DNA of 26,955 nt from a virus (lineage: Duplodnaviria > Heunggongvirae > Uroviricota > Caudoviricetes), in the IMG/VR virus record IMGVR_UViG_3300013104_000003, positions 1-26,955 of that record; one strand, written 5' to 3'. Below are positions 1,629 through 22,538 of this stretch, one piece after another. Below the pieces are notes generated by a model. That model was not told the origin of the DNA. It saw nothing but the letters and a program-made list of their open reading frames with translations, and did no database searches. A program made the position numbers and the translations under genes. Each line of letters opens with the position of its first letter. Within the stretch, counting starts at the first letter, position 1.

Positions 1629-3101
1629 CTATTGGGTAAATGGATTAGTTCGTGTTAGATTTGCGGACAACAGTCCAGAAGTGAAGTTTGGAATAATTTG
1701 TTTTTGTGCTAATATCATAAAGCCATCACTGCACACGTCCACAAGATCATCATGACCATTTGCGCCAGACTTTCTTTCTCCCGTGAATGTCTCCAATTCT
1801 TTGTAAAAGAATCCAAGCTCACTGAAAACCTTGTTCTCAAAGTCTGTCCCACAATTCTTCAAGATTCTAATCCCCCCATTCATACACATAGACGCGAAGG
1901 GTCTGAATCTATCAACTTTACTAGAATTCGCACGCATAGTTCTTACAAAGAATCCTTCTGCTGAGATTTCTCTTGCAAGCATTGTTGTTGCAGCTTTCGA
2001 TGCGGGGTTAGGATCAAGTGGTAAAACAATATCTACTTTGCTCCCATCCCTTTGTGCGTTCTCTACAATGAAAGCTTTCCAATCACCAAAACGAATTCGT
2101 GTCCGTTGAACATCGTGGATGAAATAAGTACCATCCTTCATTTTTGAAATCTTAATGCAAGCCGTGTAATCTGGATCATATGAGCTATCAGATGACTTCA
2201 GAGTGCCAGCGACATCATATGCCCTAACAGTCTTAACAATATCACTCCAAGCCGGCTCTTGATCTTCTTCTTTGAACCAGTGGCGTTTTATAAGACCTTG
2301 TCCATCTGGCCTAGCCTCCCAATTCCCGTATAAAAGAATTTCTTTCTCGATACGCGGCAAACCTTGAAGAAAAGCAATATAGCTTTTCTCAATATGTGGG
2401 TTATCGTATACCGATGCGGAAATAAAACGGAAAGAAAGAGGAGTAAGATCGGGGTATCGCTCTTCTAATTCTTCTTTTGTATCTGCCCAAAACATTTCAT
2501 TATCTAGGCGAACAAACCAGCGAATTATACCCTGTTTTGCAGGGTCAGGACGACCAAATAATTCATGACCTTCTGGGTAGAGATACCAATCAACATACTT
2601 CCTAACCCAACTATCTGGGTCTGGGTTCATTGTAGCGCGCATGTTTGGCTTCATATTAGCCTTTGTACGCAAACGAGAAAGAATGTAGTTGAACTGGGAT
2701 TCTTCAAACTGACAAAGTTCCTCCATTACGCAACTGGAGATTTGAGCACCTTGAAAGTTATCTGTGTCATCCACACGTTCGAAATGAGAAAAGAAAATTT
2801 CTGCATCTGAGCTTGTAATAATCTTTAAATCTTTAATTCTTACTCTACAGTCTGGATCTAACAATTTATAAAGTTGTTTTGCTTCGTCCCAAACAGCACC
2901 CGGCTTAAGTAGCATCGGTGTAGTTCGACGTAATGTTAGTCCTCTATAAAGGGGATCGTGCATATATTTGGCGTGATGGGCAAGTCCTGCCCAAGTTTTT
3001 CCTCCGCCAGCCTGACCCCCGTAGAAACAGATGTCCACCCAATCAGGCGTGGACAAAAACATCGCTTGTGGTTTGCTGGCAGGCGCGACTACATTTGTCA
3101 A
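1629..3101 (-). CDS. terL: Terminase large subunit
   Basis: Walker A YGGQAGGGKT, Walker B-like VMEEL, coupling motif ATMNP, C-terminal nuclease RAYDVAG...HDDLVD; TTG start with GAGG RBS. Confidence 0.95.
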   Translation of the reverse strand: MTNVVAPASKPQAMFLSTPDWVDICFYGGQAGGGKTWAGLAHHAKYMHDPLYRGLTLRRTTPMLLKPGAVWDEAKQLYKLLDPDCRVRIKDLKIITSSDAEIFFSHFERVDDTDNFQGAQISSCVMEELCQFEESQFNYILSRLRTKANMKPNMRATMNPDPDSWVRKYVDWYLYPEGHELFGRPDPAKQGIIRWFVRLDNEMFWADTKEELEERYPDLTPLSFRFISASVYDNPHIEKSYIAFLQGLPRIEKEILLYGNWEARPDGQGLIKRHWFKEEDQEPAWSDIVKTVRAYDVAGTLKSSDSSYDPDYTACIKISKMKDGTYFIHDVQRTRIRFGDWKAFIVENAQRDGSKVDIVLPLDPNPASKAATTMLAREISAEGFFVRTMRANSSKVDRFRPFASMCMNGGIRILKNCGTDFENKVFSELGFFYKELETFTGERKSGANGHDDLVDVCSDGFMILAQKQIIPNFTSGLLSANLTRTNPFTQ

Positions 3102-4218
3102 AGACGCTTACCTCAATTTGTTCTATATTGGTTTTAACTTCCAACCACCTCTCTTTGTTTTCGAGAGCGTTAGATACAGAATTTCTGGCCACTCCGTAAA
3201 GATTTGCTAGAAACTTTTGTTCTACAAAACCAGATCGCCACAATATAAGAGCTTCTGTTACATCAACCAGAGAAAATTTTGCTTTGCTGTTATACTTATG
3301 CTTTTCTACATTAAGTAACCTTAAAGTGGTTTGAATTTTATCTCTGTTTTCTTCTCTATTAGACATCCAATCAGCGATATATTCTTGTTCAATATCCTTT
3401 AAAGTCTTATGTAAAGATTTTTCAATTTCTTCAATGTAATAGTCTGAATTATTATTCAAGGCTTTTACAATAAAATCTGGATTTTGTGAGGGATCAAAAT
3501 CATCCGAAAATCTTTCAATCATTGTTTTGAAGTAAGTCCCGCTAAAATAAAGGTCTGAGACTTTTTGTATTTTTGTTGAAAAATCTTTCGGGCCGGTCTT
3601 ATCAGAGCGTTGCCAGAAGTCTTTATATACATGAAAACTCAACCAATCTTTCAACTCACCTTTGAATCGAAAGGCTGGAAAAACTGAACCTATATTTATA
3701 AGAAATGGCTGAATGTCGTCTTGTTTCCTGTTGAATTGAGACATATATTTAGTATTACTCAACTTCCAGTTAATAAGACGTTTTCTGCGTTCTGTTTCCT
3801 TCCGGGTTGCTTTAATCCTTTCCATAACTTCTGGAGGATGTGTCACACCGAACATGGGGTTGTTTTCACCAGAGCATTGTACACTAACAGCTTTAGAATA
3901 CTCTTCACGTAGCTTAGAATAAATTTTAGAATTAATACCTACGTGACTATTGCCTGCGATATCATTTGTCCAACGTGAACTCATGATATGTGCAGCTCTC
4001 ATCAAACTGATGTTTTGAGGATTAGCTATCCACAAGAGCATGTGGGCGATGAAGTGCTCTCTTCCAGAGAAGAGTACAAAATTAGAAGCTTCATTTGTTC
4101 CTCCAATACATACTGGGACAATGTGATGAGCTTCTGTGTAGAAATCTATTTTTGATTTATCAAGACCACGAACTTTAGCTTTTGCTACAAGATCATTATA
4201 AATTTTACTGTAATTCAA
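3043..4218 (-). CDS. Free-standing HNH homing endonuclease with NUMOD3 motif (Mob-like)
   Basis: EAHHIVPVCIGGTNEASNFVLFSGREHFIAHMLLW HNH core; SGENNPMFGVTH NUMOD3-like repeat; overlaps the terL 5' end by 59 nt. Confidence 0.85.
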   Translation of the reverse strand: MNYSKIYNDLVAKAKVRGLDKSKIDFYTEAHHIVPVCIGGTNEASNFVLFSGREHFIAHMLLWIANPQNISLMRAAHIMSSRWTNDIAGNSHVGINSKIYSKLREEYSKAVSVQCSGENNPMFGVTHPPEVMERIKATRKETERRKRLINWKLSNTKYMSQFNRKQDDIQPFLINIGSVFPAFRFKGELKDWLSFHVYKDFWQRSDKTGPKDFSTKIQKVSDLYFSGTYFKTMIERFSDDFDPSQNPDFIVKALNNNSDYYIEEIEKSLHKTLKDIEQEYIADWMSNREENRDKIQTTLRLLNVEKHKYNSKAKFSLVDVTEALILWRSGFVEQKFLANLYGVARNSVSNALENKERWLEVKTNIEQIEVSVFDKCSRACQQTTSDVFVHA

Positions 4219-6830: not shown

Positions 6831-7096
6831 TATGAATTATCCTGTACGCAAATTTTACCGTTTCCACGAATCCAGCAACCAACTTCCCCAGCATCCACTA
6901 CGTAGAATTGATAGGGTTGAATATAAACGCCATCAGTAGATGTGGATAGGGGCTGTAATGCACTTATTTGCACGTATAGTGCGCTAGTGCTCTTATTTTG
7001 AATAATAATAGAAGTTCCCACTGTGATACCGGAAGAAGTATACACATCGGTAAAGGAACCATTCACTGAAGATATATCAGGAATCGTATTTGCCAC
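6830..7096 (-). CDS. Small beta-rich protein, probable fibre-associated virion protein
   Basis: 88 aa, GTG start, stop overlaps the fibre ATG (translational coupling); IIIQNKS..LYVQ pattern. Confidence 0.7.
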   Translation of the reverse strand: MANTIPDISSVNGSFTDVYTSSGITVGTSIIIQNKSTSALYVQISALQPLSTSTDGVYIQPYQFYVVDAGEVGCWIRGNGKICVQDNS

Positions 7097-7100
7097 TTTA

Positions 7101-7440
7101 ACAATCCTATTTTATTTTTATATTAGGGATTGTCTTGTTCTGAGGAATTATAGCCTGTAGACAGACAACACAGGCTTTTAGTGGGGCAGCCTCGTCTGCT
7201 TTGAAGAAATCAATTATACTTCATTAAATAATTGACTATAGTATAGTTGACTGATGCCACGCTTACCTGCATTCAGTCGTGGAGTCCATAGTGACTCCCT
7301 CTCCGCTCACTAGTCTTTCCTAGCAGTCATTTATTCGCTATCCGCCAGAATAGCTGGGTGAGAACTAGGCAGTTCCCGATACCAAGCCGAAGCCTGATTC
7401 TATGTCACCTAAACACAACATTTAGGTTGAGATGTTTAGA
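7101..7440 (-). ncRNA. Putative structured non-coding RNA (C)
   Basis: About 11 back-to-back hairpins including a C(UUCG)G tetraloop (7383-7396); stem irregularities read as G-U wobbles on the minus strand; no ORF. Confidence 0.6.
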
Positions 7441-7454
7441 TAATGTAACAAATG

Positions 7455-7859
7455 TTACTCATCATCTTCGTCTGGAGTAAACACCAAACTCAGACGTGGA
7501 CGCAATTCACTTTTAATCTCTTCAGGAGTCTGCTCTTCAGGCTCACGCTTACCTTCCATACGAGCCTTGAAGTTAGAGATTTCATCGGCGTTTGCAGCCT
7601 TCTCAACACTTACAATGGAATTGATAACCCATTTAGCACTTGCTACAGAATCAGCGTTCACTTCTTCATTTTTTAGGCTTTTATCAATAAGCGCAAGGGC
7701 AATATCTTCACGAGTACGAAGCTTATCTGCAAGTTCACGAAGTTGAGACTTTTTAATACGAACCTTTGAATTTCCTTTGGTGTTACGGTTACTACGTTCA
7801 CCTTGGAACTGTGTTTCTTTCTGCTTTGCAGTTTGTTTATCTTTTGTCAAACCTGCCAT
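7455..7859 (-). CDS. Putative terminase small subunit
   Basis: 134 aa; basic N-terminus with QFQGERSNRNTKG resembling the F..G.SGNP.G motif of TerS proteins; helical core; RPRLSL-acidic C-terminus; upstream of terL on the same strand. Confidence 0.55.
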   Translation of the reverse strand: MAGLTKDKQTAKQKETQFQGERSNRNTKGNSKVRIKKSQLRELADKLRTREDIALALIDKSLKNEEVNADSVASAKWVINSIVSVEKAANADEISNFKARMEGKREPEEQTPEEIKSELRPRLSLVFTPDEDDE

Positions 7860-7869
7860 AATTATGCAC

Positions 7870-8211
7870 CTTTATGCAAAAATTCATAATTTAATATTTC
7901 TTAAATACACTCTAATACAGAATATCTGTGTTCACTACGTGAGGAATGTATTTAAGAAAGCTCACCTGAAATCGTTAGGAGAGGAACGACCAGATGGGCA
8001 AATAACCAAACAACCCGAGGAGAGAGAGAGGAAGAAAGATTGTTTGGTTGAGGAGCACATACCCTATGTTATCGGAGGATTTTACTTATGGTATGTGTGG
8101 AGAAATTGGTATTCCCTTGTCTCACCCTACAGCAACAAACACATGGAAATTGCTGGGGGATATTTGCTACGCAAATGCACATCACCAAGGGAAATCTTTT
8201 TAACACCAAAC
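7870..8211 (-). ncRNA. Putative structured RNA/leader (B) with CU-rich loops
   Basis: Five helical domains with 8-12 bp stems; loops and linkers carry UCC/UCCUC; starts just downstream of a consensus promoter. Confidence 0.6.
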
Positions 8212-8217
8212 AGAGAT

Positions 8218-8247
8218 AGTATAACATCCATATATCTATTTTGTCAA
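8218..8247 (-). promoter_or_regulatory. Sigma70-like promoter TTGACA-N18-TATACT with extended -10 (TG)
   Basis: Read directly: ttgacaaaatagatatatggatgttatact. Confidence 0.8.
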
Positions 8248-8274
8248 TAGATATTCACAATTGAATCAATATTT

Positions 8275-8805
8275 CTAATCAAAATACGAATATTCTTCTT
8301 GAAGCTCTGATAATTGATCCATAACTTGATTGTAGCGCATCTTAGACATAAAGTCGTCTTGACAAGAATTGTACTTTTTGTTGTTGCAAGACTTGCAAAG
8401 CAACTGAAGATTTTTCACAGAATTTGAAGAAATTATTCCTACTGGTCGGATATGATCAATTTCGAAGGCTACATCATCAAAAGATACAAAACATGCTGCG
8501 CATTCATTGCTCTGAATTTCTAACAGATATCGAATGTCTTCTGGTTTGAAGTTTTCAATTTCTTCATGTCCTTGTTTTGAAAATCTAGCTTTTGCAAAAT
8601 AATTCCGCTTCTTGATCCGTTCGTCAAAATTATCTTCCGTCAGGTAAGAATTTCTTTCTTCATGCCATTCTCGAAGTCTTTTACTACGTTCGATAGATTT
8701 TGTATCGCTTTTAAACTCTTCGTTATATTCAGAGATACAGTCTTTACATCGTCCGCTGTTTGTGTGCTCTGAATAGTGACCTTTACTGCATTCTTTTAGT
8801 TCCAC
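8275..8805 (-). CDS. HNH endonuclease (Zn-binding, McrA/gp74-like)
   Basis: CAAC...EIDHIRPV...NSVKNLQLLCKSCNNKK; N-terminal C..GH...RC..C finger; GTG start with AGGTG RBS. Confidence 0.85.
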   Translation of the reverse strand: MELKECSKGHYSEHTNSGRCKDCISEYNEEFKSDTKSIERSKRLREWHEERNSYLTEDNFDERIKKRNYFAKARFSKQGHEEIENFKPEDIRYLLEIQSNECAACFVSFDDVAFEIDHIRPVGIISSNSVKNLQLLCKSCNNKKYNSCQDDFMSKMRYNQVMDQLSELQEEYSYFD

Positions 8806-8842
8806 ACTTCACCTATTTTAAATTATTGGATAGAATAGTTAT

Positions 8843-8872
8843 AAAATAACATGTAAAGTGAGAATATGTCAA
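8843..8872 (-). promoter_or_regulatory. Sigma70-like promoter TTGACA-N18-TATTTT (TG-extended)
   Basis: Duplicate of the 8218-8247 promoter; weaker -10. Confidence 0.5.
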
Positions 8873-8879
8873 TAGATAT

Positions 8880-9113
8880 TTACAAATCCCAAGAACTTTC
8901 TAACCCTTCCATCATTTTATAAAATTCATTATCAATGTAGCCATACCAAATCTTTTTTATGAAGATACAAACCTCACCTGTTGGGTGATGTGGGTCTATC
9001 TCAATATCAGAAATTTTACATTGATACTTTTTAGAAATAAATATGATTTCTTTATGGAAGTCTTGCCTCACCCTGTACCTATCATAGTCATAAGGATCTA
9101 TGTATTTGTTCAT
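8880..9113 (-). CDS. Hypothetical protein
   Basis: 77-aa ORF, AGGT RBS, fills the gap between tract A and the HNH gene. Confidence 0.65.
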   Translation of the reverse strand: MNKYIDPYDYDRYRVRQDFHKEIIFISKKYQCKISDIEIDPHHPTGEVCIFIKKIWYGYIDNEFYKMMEGLESSWDL

Positions 9114-9149
9114 TTCTTTAATTACCTATTATTTACTAATATTTAGATT

Positions 9150-9625
9150 TACACTTCCAACTGAGTTCAGATAAGAAACTTCAGATAAAGAAAAGCCTTA
9201 CCCAGCCATACAGATTTAACAATCTGCCTAAGACTGAGCACTGCTCCTTATCTGATAGCCTTATCTGCCTCTATCCGTAAAGATAGTTTCTTCCAACTTG
9301 AGACGAGATTAAGAGAATGACTTTTCAATCATTCTACGGTCTACACGGATCACATAGCCGCCTTCAGGACAATGACACTAATAACGCATTGTCTCACCAC
9401 ATAGCATATCGCACAGAGTTATTAGCTCTGTCAGGGAGGTAGTGGTTTTCAGAATACCTTGTTGACTTTCCCATCACTCACAGTCGTCAACTTATTCAGA
9501 TTGTTGCTGCCATCTCGTATAGGAAGCTTTAGCCACCACACTAACCGACCAACAATCTATATCTACTGATTCACCGTAGCCGCTAGAAATCTCGAATGTC
9601 GTTGCCGTTAGATGAGATTTCAATA
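9150..9625 (-). ncRNA. Putative large multi-domain structured RNA (A)
   Basis: At least 9 helices plus long-range 7-bp complementarities; GAAA tetraloop and G-U wobbles on the minus strand; own promoter directly upstream; no ORF. Confidence 0.65.
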
Positions 9626-9631
9626 AGGGGG

Positions 9632-9659
9632 ATTATACAGCATTATTTTCAGAATGCAA
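9632..9659 (-). promoter_or_regulatory. Sigma70-like promoter TTGCAT-N16-TATAAT
   Basis: Perfect -10; predicted start at the 5' edge of tract A. Confidence 0.7.
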
Positions 9660-9711
9660 TACTAAGATTAAAATAAAATGGCTTTATTGTTTTCTGTTCC
9701 CTTCCAACAAT

Positions 9712-9739
9712 AGTTTACAGTATTTTTCAAGGATGTCAA
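9712..9739 (-). promoter_or_regulatory. Sigma70-like promoter TTGACA-N16-TAAACT
   Basis: Consensus -35; tandem with the 9632-9659 promoter. Confidence 0.55.
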
Positions 9740-9797
9740 GCTTTATTTACACCCTCCCACAACATTATTTTATATTCCAAACAAATCTATTCACCGC

Positions 9798-9826
9798 TTG
9801 CAATGCATCCCCAACAGTGCTATCCT
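9798..9826 (+). promoter_or_regulatory. Sigma70-like early promoter TTGCAA-N17-TATCCT (TG-extended)
   Basis: Sits ahead of the first plus-strand gene; divergent from the minus-strand promoters. Confidence 0.65.
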
Positions 9827-9853
9827 TTGTACAACAAATAGGGGATGCCTCAA

Positions 9854-10009
9854 ATGCCCATCATCCACCTAGACACCTACCGTCTCCTGAAACAAATCCT
9901 TGAACAAGCAGATAAGGTTGTGATAGTGTCGGTGAACACAGAGGATGGGAAGCAAATGACATACATGTATGTGAAACGTAAGCAAATTGAGAAGGGAGAG
10001 AAGAGATGA
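9854..10009 (+). CDS. Hypothetical protein (51 aa)
   Basis: AGGGG RBS; MPIIHLDTYRLLKQILEQADKVVIVSVNTEDGKQMTYMYVKRKQIEKGEKR; ATGA overlap with the next ORF. Confidence 0.6.
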   Translation: MPIIHLDTYRLLKQILEQADKVVIVSVNTEDGKQMTYMYVKRKQIEKGEKR

Positions 10010-10296
10010 ATAGTAAATACAGTGCTGAAGATGTCTTGCTCACATTTGGTCCGCATGTAGTAACAGGCTTTGCTGATGGTAGCCTATATCAATCACCGAA
10101 GCTTTGGCACACAGCCGAGCAGCTTGAGAGTGGTAACTGGAAAGTGTCAGTTGAACACAAAGGTAATCGTACGCTGGATGTAGAGCTTTCAGATGAGAAT
10201 TACAAGAAGTACGGTATTGACAGGCTTGAACCAACGGTAGAGAATCCTTTCAAGGTCGATTATGATGATGCAGACTTGATTGAGGTGAGGAAATGA
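10006..10296 (+). CDS. Hypothetical protein; N-terminus resembles tail-tube (DUF3277-like) N-termini
   Basis: YSAEDVLLTFGPHVVTGFADGS; RBS present; ATGA overlaps. Confidence 0.7.
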   Translation: MNSKYSAEDVLLTFGPHVVTGFADGSLYQSPKLWHTAEQLESGNWKVSVEHKGNRTLDVELSDENYKKYGIDRLEPTVENPFKVDYDDADLIEVRK

Positions 10297-10511
10297 ATCA
10301 ATATGAAGAAGGTGAAACTGTTCATGTCGTAGATAACAGAACTGGCGAGGTTGAATCTTGGGAGGTTGTAAAGCAAATTGACACTTACATCTATGGTGCC
10401 CATTATTATCCAGAAGTGTACCTGCTGAAACAGACTGTCATACACGCTTATGGTGAGCCGCAGTTGATAACGGATGTTGTGAATGCTGTTAAAATGAGGA
10501 AAATAAAATGA
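10293..10511 (+). CDS. Hypothetical protein
   Basis: GAGG RBS, ATGA overlaps. Confidence 0.7.
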   Translation: MNQYEEGETVHVVDNRTGEVESWEVVKQIDTYIYGAHYYPEVYLLKQTVIHAYGEPQLITDVVNAVKMRKIK

Positions 10512-21260: not shown

Positions 21261-22003
21261 GCTTTAAAACAAAACTAATAGGGAGTTGTAACCACATACA
21301 ACATTTTGACTTACGAGAGCATAAAGGACGTTCATTTGTTAGTACAGACTTACACGGTCACTACCACTTGTTGCACGACAAACTAAAAGAAGTTGCATTT
21401 GATAGCAGTAAAGATTTGTTGTTCTTGGCTGGTGATCATACTGACAGACATGCTGATAGTAAATATGTTCTTGATTATTTGTGTGAACCTTGGGTGTTTG
21501 CAATCAGGGGTAATCACTGTGAAATGCTGATTAATGCATATGAAAACCCAAACAGTAGAAATGCTTTTGAAATGTTGTATTGCAATGGTGGGCAGTGGTA
21601 CTATGACATTACTCCTTCGGAACAGAAAGCAATTTATGAAGTATTTAAATCACTCCCACTAGCTTTTGAAATACAGACAAATCATGGCACTATAGGTATA
21701 GTGCATGCACAAGTTCCGTTTGATGATTGGAATCAATTTAAATCTTGCACTAAAGCTGAGATGGAATGGAACGTTCAGGCTATTTCTCAGTGGGCACGAA
21801 CAAAGTATGATAAGAAAGACACTTCAGTTGTAAAAGGTATTGATGTAGCAATCTCAGGACACACTCCCACTGATAGTGGCGAATTGGAACAATTAGGAAA
21901 TCAACTCTTTTGTGATTTAGGGTCATTTTTCAGAGAAAAAATAAGCTTTGTGGAAATAGATAGTCAATTAATAAGAGATATTAAGGAAAATAAGTATGGA
22001 TAA
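21257..22003 (+). CDS. Ser/Thr protein phosphatase (NinI-like calcineurin-type metallophosphoesterase)
   Basis: DLHG, GDHTDR, RGNH, HA and GHTP motifs; start re-called at ATG 21257. Confidence 0.88.
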   Translation: MSFKTKLIGSCNHIQHFDLREHKGRSFVSTDLHGHYHLLHDKLKEVAFDSSKDLLFLAGDHTDRHADSKYVLDYLCEPWVFAIRGNHCEMLINAYENPNSRNAFEMLYCNGGQWYYDITPSEQKAIYEVFKSLPLAFEIQTNHGTIGIVHAQVPFDDWNQFKSCTKAEMEWNVQAISQWARTKYDKKDTSVVKGIDVAISGHTPTDSGELEQLGNQLFCDLGSFFREKISFVEIDSQLIRDIKENKYG

Positions 22004-22538
22004 AAGAAGGAAGCATGGAGTGGATCCTGAAAATAATGTACCAAAGGAAGTTTTTGAAGAAAAATTGCGGTATTGTAAGAAAACAGGCAAGCTATTTTGG
22101 AAAGGTAACAGTAGAAATTCAGGAAAAGAGGCTGGAGGACTCCGGACTAATCGGACTGGAGGAGTCTACTGTGTTGTGGGTATTGGTCATGAAGGTGCTA
22201 TATACAAATTATTCGCTCATCGTATTATTTGGATGTTGACATATGACTATTGGCCAACTGAACTTGATCACATAAATGGCTTAGGTAGCGATAACAGACT
22301 AGAGAATTTAAGGGAGGTTTCCAGATCAGAAAACAACAAGAATCACCGAAGACAGTCAAATAACTCCTCTGGTATAGCCGGTGTAACCTTTATAAACAAG
22401 CGTAATATGTGGAGAGCGTATGGTAATGCTGAGGGTAGACAAATACATTTAAAAATTACATCTGATTTCTTTGAAGCTTGTTGTGCAAGAAAATCTTGGG
22501 AGTCTTTAAATGGATTCTCTTACAGACATGGTAAATAA
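21996..22538 (+). CDS. HNH endonuclease with AP2 domain
   Basis: AHRIIW...LDHING..DNRLENLR..S.SEN..N; NNSSGIAGV...W.A AP2-like C-terminus. Confidence 0.88.
   Translation: MDKRRKHGVDPENNVPKEVFEEKLRYCKKTGKLFWKGNSRNSGKEAGGLRTNRTGGVYCVVGIGHEGAIYKLFAHRIIWMLTYDYWPTELDHINGLGSDNRLENLREVSRSENNKNHRRQSNNSSGIAGVTFINKRNMWRAYGNAEGRQIHLKITSDFFEACCARKSWESLNGFSYRHGK

Follow-up and report, generated by a model that had tools for sequence, protein, structure and literature searches.

A ~490-nt structured non-coding RNA at a divergent gene junction of an IMG/VR phage, with probable relatives in cultured Pseudomonas phages

The stretch of DNA analysed here (the window) covers positions 1-26,955 of an IMG/VR phage record that is 90,955 bp long and has terminal repeats (IMGVR_UViG_3300013104_000003; GC content 39.8%). 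A first-pass annotation of this sequence had proposed a large non-coding RNA with its own promoter, possibly of a new class, which we refer to as RNA A. Our analysis confirmed that window positions 9143-9631, minus strand, are the gene of a structured non-coding RNA of ~490 nt that is free of open reading frames (ORFs). The proposal was upheld by covariation, by a promoter in every copy and by the lack of a match in Rfam 15, and the extent first given (9625-9150) was close to the boundaries found here, that is, an inferred start at ~9631 and the end of conservation at 9143. The RNA carries twin short elements that change together between lineages, an unusual signature pointing to a specific co-evolving partner. 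Its probable relatives are present, without annotation, in no fewer than 169 genomes of cultured Pseudomonas phages, including those of the Pakpunavirus members JG004 and PA10; these two phages can be grown and engineered, so that the role of large phage RNAs by tRNA islands becomes directly testable. Only a small number of large structured RNAs without a known function have been described, among them OLE, ROOL, GOLLD and raiA, and each has opened new RNA biology.

Conservation, fold and promoter of RNA A

As there are few close relatives, homologs were searched for with conserved words from Logan contigs on the region, which were used as exact patterns; stretches of 7000-10400 without Logan contig cover were uninformative. 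Eight full copies were obtained, namely those of the source phage, of metagenome contig L094 and of the IMG/VR phages L095, L096, L098, L099, L100/L106 and L101. Contig L094 was 81% identical to the window over 526 nt and matched it nowhere else, and its proteins were syntenic and 30-64% identical. The other copies showed 75-86% nucleotide identity over 410-450 nt, with a protein identity of 25-57%. Among the eight copies the RNA was 75-86% identical in nucleotides, as against 25-64% in amino acids for the proteins. A covariance model (CM) of the central domain, CM R1, detected a single copy in each carrier genome, with scores of 192-212 bits. All eight copies have full-length nucleotide homology and the covarying helices H1-H8 in common, and we define the narrow family by these two properties. 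Searches of INPHARED by blastn with RNA A, the L094 copy or the more distant copy of genome G012 gave no useful matches, and blastn against 14 distant relatives returned matches of only ~20 nt. Several pattern matches were set aside: Logan contigs X6 and X17, which seemed to place the core in another context, diverge after 9493 into L094-type sequence; L097, a Muribaculaceae metagenome-assembled genome (MAG), was judged a chance match, as were L109-L111 and L113-L116 (an exact 17-mer only) and L117, a Rhodoferax MAG (26 nt inside ORFs).

The collected homologs showed strong covariation both in RNAalifold and in a model-fitted alignment. RNAalifold on seven copies gave 126 pairs, 35 of them with compensatory double changes. 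In the model-fitted alignment of the central domain 98.4% of the cells in 40 pairs were canonical and 16 pairs had double changes; when the partners were slid by 1-3 columns as a control, only 27-44% remained paired, with at most two double changes. Over the whole molecule and all eight sequences we counted 130 nested pairs (95.9% canonical, 38 with double changes). G-U cells numbered 190 (18%), and the opposite strand would pair only 77.6%; since these cells would mispair as A-C on the other strand, the RNA is the minus-strand transcript. The minimum free energy of 9150-9625 was -147.4 kcal/mol (z = -3.44 against dinucleotide shuffles). Of the ten local helices drawn beforehand from the window alone, nine hold with compensatory changes: 9586-9593/9614-9621, 9498-9506/9550-9558, 9461-9466/9486-9491, 9414-9430, 9368-9374/9387-9393, 9314-9335, 9211-9226 and both nested CAGAUAAG helices. 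The tenth, the hairpin at 9271-9286, is present in only three of the eight copies.

The architecture modelled from these pairs (Table 1) comprises a 5' hairpin bearing a GNRA mini-hairpin, a fast-evolving multi-helix centre and, at the 3' side, a conserved hairpin whose internal loop is receptor-like. The helix closing the 5' hairpin P1 differs in sequence by lineage, with pairing always kept, and its mini-hairpin covaries (CG-GCAA-CG, GC-GAAA-GC, CG-GAAA-CG, CU-GUAA-AG and GC-GAGA-GU); P1 is absent from L098 and L101. A long-range closure of CUGA with UCAG is predicted as well; its pairs are invariant and so give no covariation signal.

The same data bear on the possibility that the conserved sequence acts as DNA, for example as a pac- or cos-like site with TerS-binding repeats, a transcript-primed replication origin or a set of operator repeats. 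Its location 0.7-2.3 kb upstream of a terS-like gene, the AT-rich stretch after the RNA and the presence of lineage-covarying direct repeats, which recall the R sites of lambda cosB, would suit such an element. We nevertheless regard it as very improbable, given that compensatory changes keep the helices over the whole 440 nt, that the G-U cells are strand-specific, that the G012 and G005 copies lie far from terS and that the TerS identity of the 134-aa protein concerned is itself putative.

The absence of a coding function was borne out: within 9150-9625 there is no ORF of 45 aa or more (translation table 11), and reading TAG, TGA or TAA as sense gave no credible frame. The promoter TTGCAT-N16-TATAAT lies where it had been placed (9659-9654 / 9637-9632, minus strand), and TTGNNN together with a TATAAT-like -10 hexamer was found in every copy. 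The distance from the -10 hexamer to the common core ranges from ~19 to 75 nt, a spread caused by differences among copies in the region of the 5' hairpin. From its sequence the promoter appears to be of the sigma-70 type, used by the host RNA polymerase, and transcription probably starts at ~9631-9629, ~7 nt after the -10 hexamer. Conservation sets in a few bases past this predicted start and stops sharply at UGUAAAUCUAA (window 9143).

Table 1. Features of RNA A and its promoter (window positions)
Feature	Position	Strand	Basis or variation
-35 hexamer TTGCAT	9654..9659	-	TTGNNN 16-17 nt upstream of the -10 in every homolog
-10 hexamer TATAAT	9632..9637	-	kept in all copies: TATAAT, TATGAT, CATAAT, TATACT, TACAAT, TATTAT
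P1 hairpin, closing helix GAAAUCUC/GAGAUUUC	9586..9621	-	loop UCUAA-[CG GCAA CG]-ACAUU, GNRA mini-hairpin
Lineage-specific insert	9558..9585	-	window and L094 only; alignments
H1/H1b long hairpin, GAUUGUUGGUCGG ... UGGCAGCAACAAUC	9499..9557	-	RNAalifold, double changes
H2 hairpin GUUGAC/GUCAAC, invariant loop CUGUGAGUGAUGGGA	9461..9491	-	GCGGAC/GUCUGC in six copies
Junction strand with CUGA	9446..9460	-	RNAalifold pairs CUGA to UCAG of repeat R2 (predicted)
H3 with inner hairpin H3b (9413-9431), conserved internal loops ACCUCCCU and GCGAUAUGCNAU	9396..9445	-	seven double-change pairs
H4 hairpin, loop GUUAUUAG	9368..9393	-	helix in model-fitted alignment
H5 hairpin, loop AUCCGU	9336..9361	-	helix in model-fitted alignment
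H6 variable hairpin, GAAA loop in the window	9315..9334	-	all stem positions vary among copies, pairing retained
Repeat R1, CUCAAGUUGGAAG	9290..9302	-	alignment, motif search
3' domain: small hairpin, ACGGAUAGAGG, long hairpin H8 with two stacked CAGAUAAG/CUUAUCUG helices	9166..9289	-	RNAalifold and whole-molecule covariation
H8 internal loop C-UUAG-G / U-AU-G	9224-9234 / 9203-9213	-	
Repeat R2, CUCAGUUGGAAG	9154..9165	-	changes in step with R1 in every lineage
3' tail UGUAAAUCUAA	9143..9153	-	identical in the distant G012 copy; end of conservation

Twin elements and candidate tertiary contacts

The most telling unexplained feature of RNA A is the concerted change of the two elements R1 and R2, which flank the 3' hairpin and are the same within each genome and different between lineages. 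Their variable part reads GUUGGAAG in the window and L101, GUUGAAAG in L094 and the L095 group, GUUUGGAAG in L098 and GUUAGAA in L099. In genomes assigned below to the wider family it reads GUGGCAAG (G012), GUAGCAAG (G005), CAGAAUG (G003), ACACAAUG (G006) and UCUGCAU (PA10 and JG004). In the G003, G006 and Pakpunavirus forms each element resembles a small hairpin with the same loop in both. Therefore either one co-evolving partner reads both sites, or one site is engaged in two alternative pairings. The genome contains 11 occurrences of the sequence GTTGGAAG, where 2.8 would be expected, and the longer motif is confined to the RNA.

Two identical sites that surround a conserved hairpin and change together between lineages could also mark a precursor in which cleavage at both elements, through a ribozyme activity of the 5' domains or by a site-specific nuclease, would free the H8 module of ~135 nt as the working small RNA. 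The non-coding RNAs from the tRNA region of phage PAK_P3 (~120 and 210 nt), which have no start site of their own and are made by processing, offer a precedent. They have no sequence likeness to the RNA A family, however; moreover, RNA A gave no match to a known self-cleaving ribozyme family, no internal guide complementary to R was found in it at a conserved position, and we judge the precursor model to be quite improbable.

A second promoter-like site, TTGACA-N16-TAAACT (9739-9712, minus strand), lies ~80 nt upstream of the RNA promoter and is immediately followed by a third copy of GUUGGAAG (9708-9701, minus strand) within a small hairpin. The occurrence of CAGATAAG in the early promoter at 9909 was considered as a general link to RNA A and rejected, as it is found only in the source genome (G000) and in G016.

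The long-range contacts first proposed did not withstand comparison. Both pairs of complementary 7-mers exist in the window sequence and are unconserved: the CUACGGU segment of CUACGGU/ACCGUAG is present only in the window and in L094, where two of the seven pairs are broken, and ACGAGAU/AUCUCGU is broken in L094, L098, L101 and L106. An all-against-all scan of the alignment for alternative contacts yielded two candidates. The first is a kissing interaction of the H4 loop GUUAUUAG with the H3b loop CUAAUAA (9378-9385 with 9418-9425), in which AUAA/UUAU changes to UCAA/UUGA in L098 and L101. The second is a pseudoknot of the H5 loop AUCCGU (9344-9352) with ACGGAU (9273-9278), in which an A-U pair becomes G-C in four of the eight copies; it competes with the pairing of H7. 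The aligned sequences thus suggest both contacts, each of which may reflect one evolutionary event.

The internal loop of H8 invites comparison with the 11-nt GAAA tetraloop receptor (P4-P6 J6a/6b), whose sequence is CCUAAG ... UAUGG. As in the receptor, the 3' strand of the H8 loop is UAUGG between C-G and G-U pairs, and RNA A also carries a conserved GNRA mini-hairpin in P1; the 5' strand differs, with CUUAGG (four unpaired nt) in place of CCUAAG (three nt). The GNRA loop of P1 may dock into the receptor-like loop of H8.

Gene neighbourhood and wider family

RNA A is located in a gap of 890 nt without ORFs (9114-10005) that separates two divergent gene blocks. The plus-strand block consists of small early genes, while the minus-strand block encodes a 77-aa T4 Y11B-like protein, an HNH endonuclease, a 134-aa protein, a fibre-like 669-aa protein, a homing endonuclease, TerL and the portal protein. 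The 77-aa neighbour has no relatives usable as an anchor, and the 134-aa protein, a putative TerS, gave no Pfam or PHROG match. TerL shares 49% identity with its counterpart in Pseudomonas phage vB_PsaM_M1 (Ounavirinae) and ~40% with those of PAK_P1-like, phiPMW-like and phiPsa374-like phages. The gene after the RNA varies by phage (77, 221, 326, 275, 134, 83 or 91 aa), and the only constant downstream gene is that of the 134-aa protein, 0.7-2.3 kb from the RNA. The packaging block on the minus strand contains two homing-type endonuclease genes (phrog_655; HNH), at 3043-4218 and 8275-8805, one of them directly upstream of TerL. Relatives carry other endonuclease-like genes (221, 275 and 326 aa) directly after the RNA, which makes the spot a hotspot for mobile nucleases.

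ARAGORN found no tRNA genes in the source genome, compared with one to five in its relatives, mostly just downstream of the RNA. In five uncultured carriers (G003, G015, G016, G017 and G020) tRNA genes follow on the same strand at 0.7-2.5 kb, and in PA10 and JG004 a Gln-Arg-Lys-Leu tRNA island comes right after the RNA. In the two latter phages (PA10 66,430-67,400 and JG004 21,537-22,327; loci L200 and L201) a second consensus promoter (TTGACA ... TATAAT) was seen between the RNA and a small ORF plus the tRNA island. Since this promoter precedes them, the tRNAs may not need the promoter of the RNA. Phage vB_PsaM_M1 has tRNA-Pro/Asn/Thr at the equivalent spot, and neither CM R1 nor CM R2, a second covariance model built on the 3' domain, detected a copy of the RNA in this phage. 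The RNA of G012 and G005, whose promoter reads TTGACA-N17-TACAAT, is convergent with a baseplate-hub gene (phrog_196, E 4e-58).

A cis-acting role was also weighed, in which RNA A would be the 5' leader of the tRNA and packaging (late) operon, conferring terminator resistance in the manner of put, governing processing or stability of the transcript, or timing expression by a switch between R1-paired and R2-paired states. The RNA is promoter-proximal in every copy, same-strand genes and tRNAs come after it with no terminator in between in 10 of the 12 contexts examined, and in the modelled fold R1 and R2 could compete for CUGA (9449-9452) and GAG (9270-9272) to give two exclusive folds. The downstream gene is not constant, however, and the RNA of G012 and G005 is directed towards the 3' end of the baseplate-hub gene and has no operon to lead; for these two reasons it is not a gene-specific leader. 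In addition, its 340-510 nt in the different phages and its tertiary contacts go far beyond known leaders of such kind, and no expression platform (a terminator or a helix sequestering the ribosome-binding site) was seen. We regard a cis-acting leader as a rather doubtful, if still arguable, explanation.

Beyond the eight full copies, CM R2 gave matches that were weak yet structured, namely to G021, which is Nitrincola phage 1M3-16 (E 5e-5 per genome), to G003 (E 3e-4 per genome), to G012 (E 1e-3 per genome) and, in a 57-kb search, to G005, PA10 and JG004 (E 2-4e-4). Reading the loci of G003, G005, G006, G012, G021 and Pakpunavirus by eye, we found four recurring features: a 5' hairpin with the loop UCUAA-[2 bp + GNRA + 2 bp]-ACAUU, whose 2-bp stems covary; a long hairpin on the 3' side, interrupted by the internal loop C-UUAG-G / U-AU-G; a tail GUGUAAAUCUAAUA or GUAUAUAAGAU; and the placement of the 3' hairpin between two copies of one short element. 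The G021 and Pakpunavirus copies lack a clear P1 motif. The G003 copy matched 169 cultured phage records in INPHARED by blastn, always in unannotated DNA; they include Pakpunavirus (JG004, PA10, PAK_P2, C11 and K5), phiPsa374-like and KIL-like phages, Pseudomonas putida phages and Pectobacterium phage Bobbio, and the match to PA10/JG004 was 69% over 298 nt (E 1e-12). The RNA region lies at about 21,640-22,000 in JG004 and at about 66,530-66,880 in PA10. Judged by these sequence features, the broad family is probably homologous to RNA A. It spans 340-510 nt and is carried by Ounavirinae/Pakpunavirus-like myophages with genomes of roughly 82-100 kb. The Nitrincola locus (L112 7898-8264, equal to 79242-79608 of phage 1M3-16, minus strand) is an ORF-free structured region of ~370 nt at a divergent junction; it has the H8 module and the motifs GGUAGACC and GCGGAUAGA in common with RNA A and carries no GenBank annotation.

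Known RNA classes, proposed role and nearby elements

No known class accounted for RNA A. A cmscan run against Rfam, as the first-pass annotation had suggested, returned no match to any model, including ROOL, GOLLD, group I introns, transfer-messenger RNA (tmRNA) and RNase P. Rfam 15 gave nothing at the gathering threshold over the whole window, nothing at E<=10 over 8800-10100 and nothing at E<=1 in six homologous loci, in which the same search recovered the tRNAs; loose-E matches to bglG-cis-reg (18.6 bits against a cut-off of 80) and psRNA6 were dismissed as noise. ARAGORN found neither tRNA nor tmRNA, and Rfam had no match for either at gathering on the whole window. For a group I intron (RF00028 and subtypes) there was no Rfam match and no upstream exon ORF, the promoter is directly upstream and the downstream genes are variable. 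With regard to riboswitches and gene-specific leaders, the next gene varies, the G012 and G005 copies are convergent and there is no terminator-like site. A retron- or DRT-type non-coding RNA would call for a reverse transcriptase, and neither RVT_1 (PF00078) nor a PF09414 RNA ligase was found anywhere in the source genome. The size of RNA A, its GNRA loop with a receptor-like motif and its pseudoknots could still suggest that it belongs to one of the large classes already known (group I intron, RNase P RNA, tmRNA, 6S RNA, ROOL or GOLLD) and has diverged too far for covariance models to recognise it, and GGGAAAGUC shows what we take to be a short likeness to conserved region I (CR-I) of RNase P. 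Against this stand the negative Rfam result on the window and on six homologous loci whose tRNAs were found, the negative ARAGORN result, the lack of flanking exons and the promoter directly upstream, so that we give the idea hardly any credence.

Transcriptome papers on related phages do not describe RNA A. The tRNA region of PAK_P3 yields abundant, processed, late-accumulating non-coding RNAs, as seen by RNA-seq, ONT-cappable-seq and northern blot (PMC4933390; 10.1101/2023.10.13.562163). Its ncRNA1 and ncRNA2 (sRNA1/sRNA2, Nankokuvirus) come from the same phage group and a similar order, in which a divergent junction is followed by small genes, the non-coding RNAs, tRNAs and terminase. They differ from RNA A in their size and in lacking an own start site, neither they nor the PAK_P3 locus resemble RNA A or its relatives in sequence, and PAK_P3 has no large gap after the divergent junction. 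The put RNA of HK022 is likewise a structured RNA just past a promoter at the head of a long operon. Put RNAs, however, are ~70 nt long, consist of two stem-loops and always act on their own operon; RNA A is 5-7 times larger, and the promoter-proximal position in an operon, found in 10 of 12 contexts, does not apply to G012 and G005. The 2023 IMG/VR catalogue of about 8,500 structured-RNA candidates holds motifs of 29-151 nt only (PMC10690425).

The nearest known RNAs are ROOL and GOLLD. Both occur near phage tRNA islands, their function is unknown, and GOLLD, too, is conserved in its 3' part and variable in its 5' part (10.1101/2024.12.08.627333). Like them, RNA A is hundreds of nt long, ORF-free, phage-encoded and often by tRNA islands, with helices, pseudoknots and kissing loops indicated by covariation; adjacency to a tRNA island was found in G003, G015, G016, G017, G020, PA10 and JG004, and the source phage is without tRNA. 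RNA A differs in being smaller (340-510 nt against about 580-660 and over 800), in its carriers (Pseudomonas- and Nitrincola-type myophages, as opposed to phages of Lactobacillales, the rumen or lakes) and in its twin identical elements around the 3' hairpin. The ROOL (RF03087) and GOLLD covariance models did not match it and there is no sequence likeness to either RNA; RNA A is best regarded as a new class among RNAs of this type.

With a probability of roughly 0.55 we favour the interpretation that RNA A is a stand-alone stable structured RNA acting in trans, in the manner of ROOL and GOLLD. The host RNA polymerase would transcribe it from the sigma-70-type promoter, and the product would fold into a 5' GNRA hairpin, a centre held together by the kissing loops and the pseudoknot, and a 3' receptor-like hairpin. 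R1 and R2 would then each bind one copy of the same lineage-specific partner, which could be a phage protein, a tRNA or another copy of RNA A. The RNA would belong to a stable-RNA locus heading the tRNA island, probably acting in trans and not controlling the next gene. The data show the structure of the RNA, its strand, the family, the promoter motif and the genomic contexts; its stability, its action in trans and the part played by R1/R2 are all inferred, and by analogy the processed RNAs of the PAK_P3 tRNA region and the locations of ROOL and GOLLD lend support to a stable RNA.

Several observations weigh against a stand-alone trans-acting RNA. No intrinsic terminator follows the RNA in any copy, so that its 3' end must arise by processing, and in most phages a same-strand ORF begins 27-86 nt downstream, which makes the RNA physically a 5' leader as well. 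The search for an RNA partner complementary to R1/R2, which covered +/-2.5 kb in cis and the RNA itself, gave none at a conserved position. A 207-nt contig of an L094-type copy in a metatranscriptome run is a weak hint of transcription and might derive from DNA. Finally, the case for homology of the narrow family to the G003, G012 and Pakpunavirus forms is built on weak CM scores (E 5e-5 to 1e-3 per genome) and common motifs, not of a full-length alignment.

A bolder version, which we consider unlikely, is that RNA A represents a third kind of self-organising phage RNA machine, in which R1/R2 and the GNRA/receptor pair bind two copies of a partner, either further RNA copies, to form a multimer or cage as in ROOL and GOLLD, or two tRNAs of the adjacent island. 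If true, the RNA would be a scaffold on which tRNAs are stored, protected or delivered, or one that keeps host anti-phage nucleases away from the translation apparatus.

Other non-coding elements were observed in the vicinity. An ORF-free element, RNA B (7860-8275, minus strand), has nucleotide homologs in G002 (79% over 216 nt) and G009, and another, RNA C (7097-7455, minus strand), has homologs in G002, G013 (88% over 101 nt), G009 and vB_PsaM_M1, in the last near its tRNAs. Neither matched Rfam; together they flank the 134-aa gene at the place where G020 has tRNA-Arg and tRNA-Thr. A second conserved non-coding element on the plus strand (9808-10010) is 93% identical to L096 12617-12818 and extends to the start codon (ATG) of the first early gene; it probably represents the early promoter with a leader of ~100 nt. 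It contains GCAGATAAGG, a 10-mer that it shares with the H8 stem of RNA A, though this holds for G000 and G016 alone.
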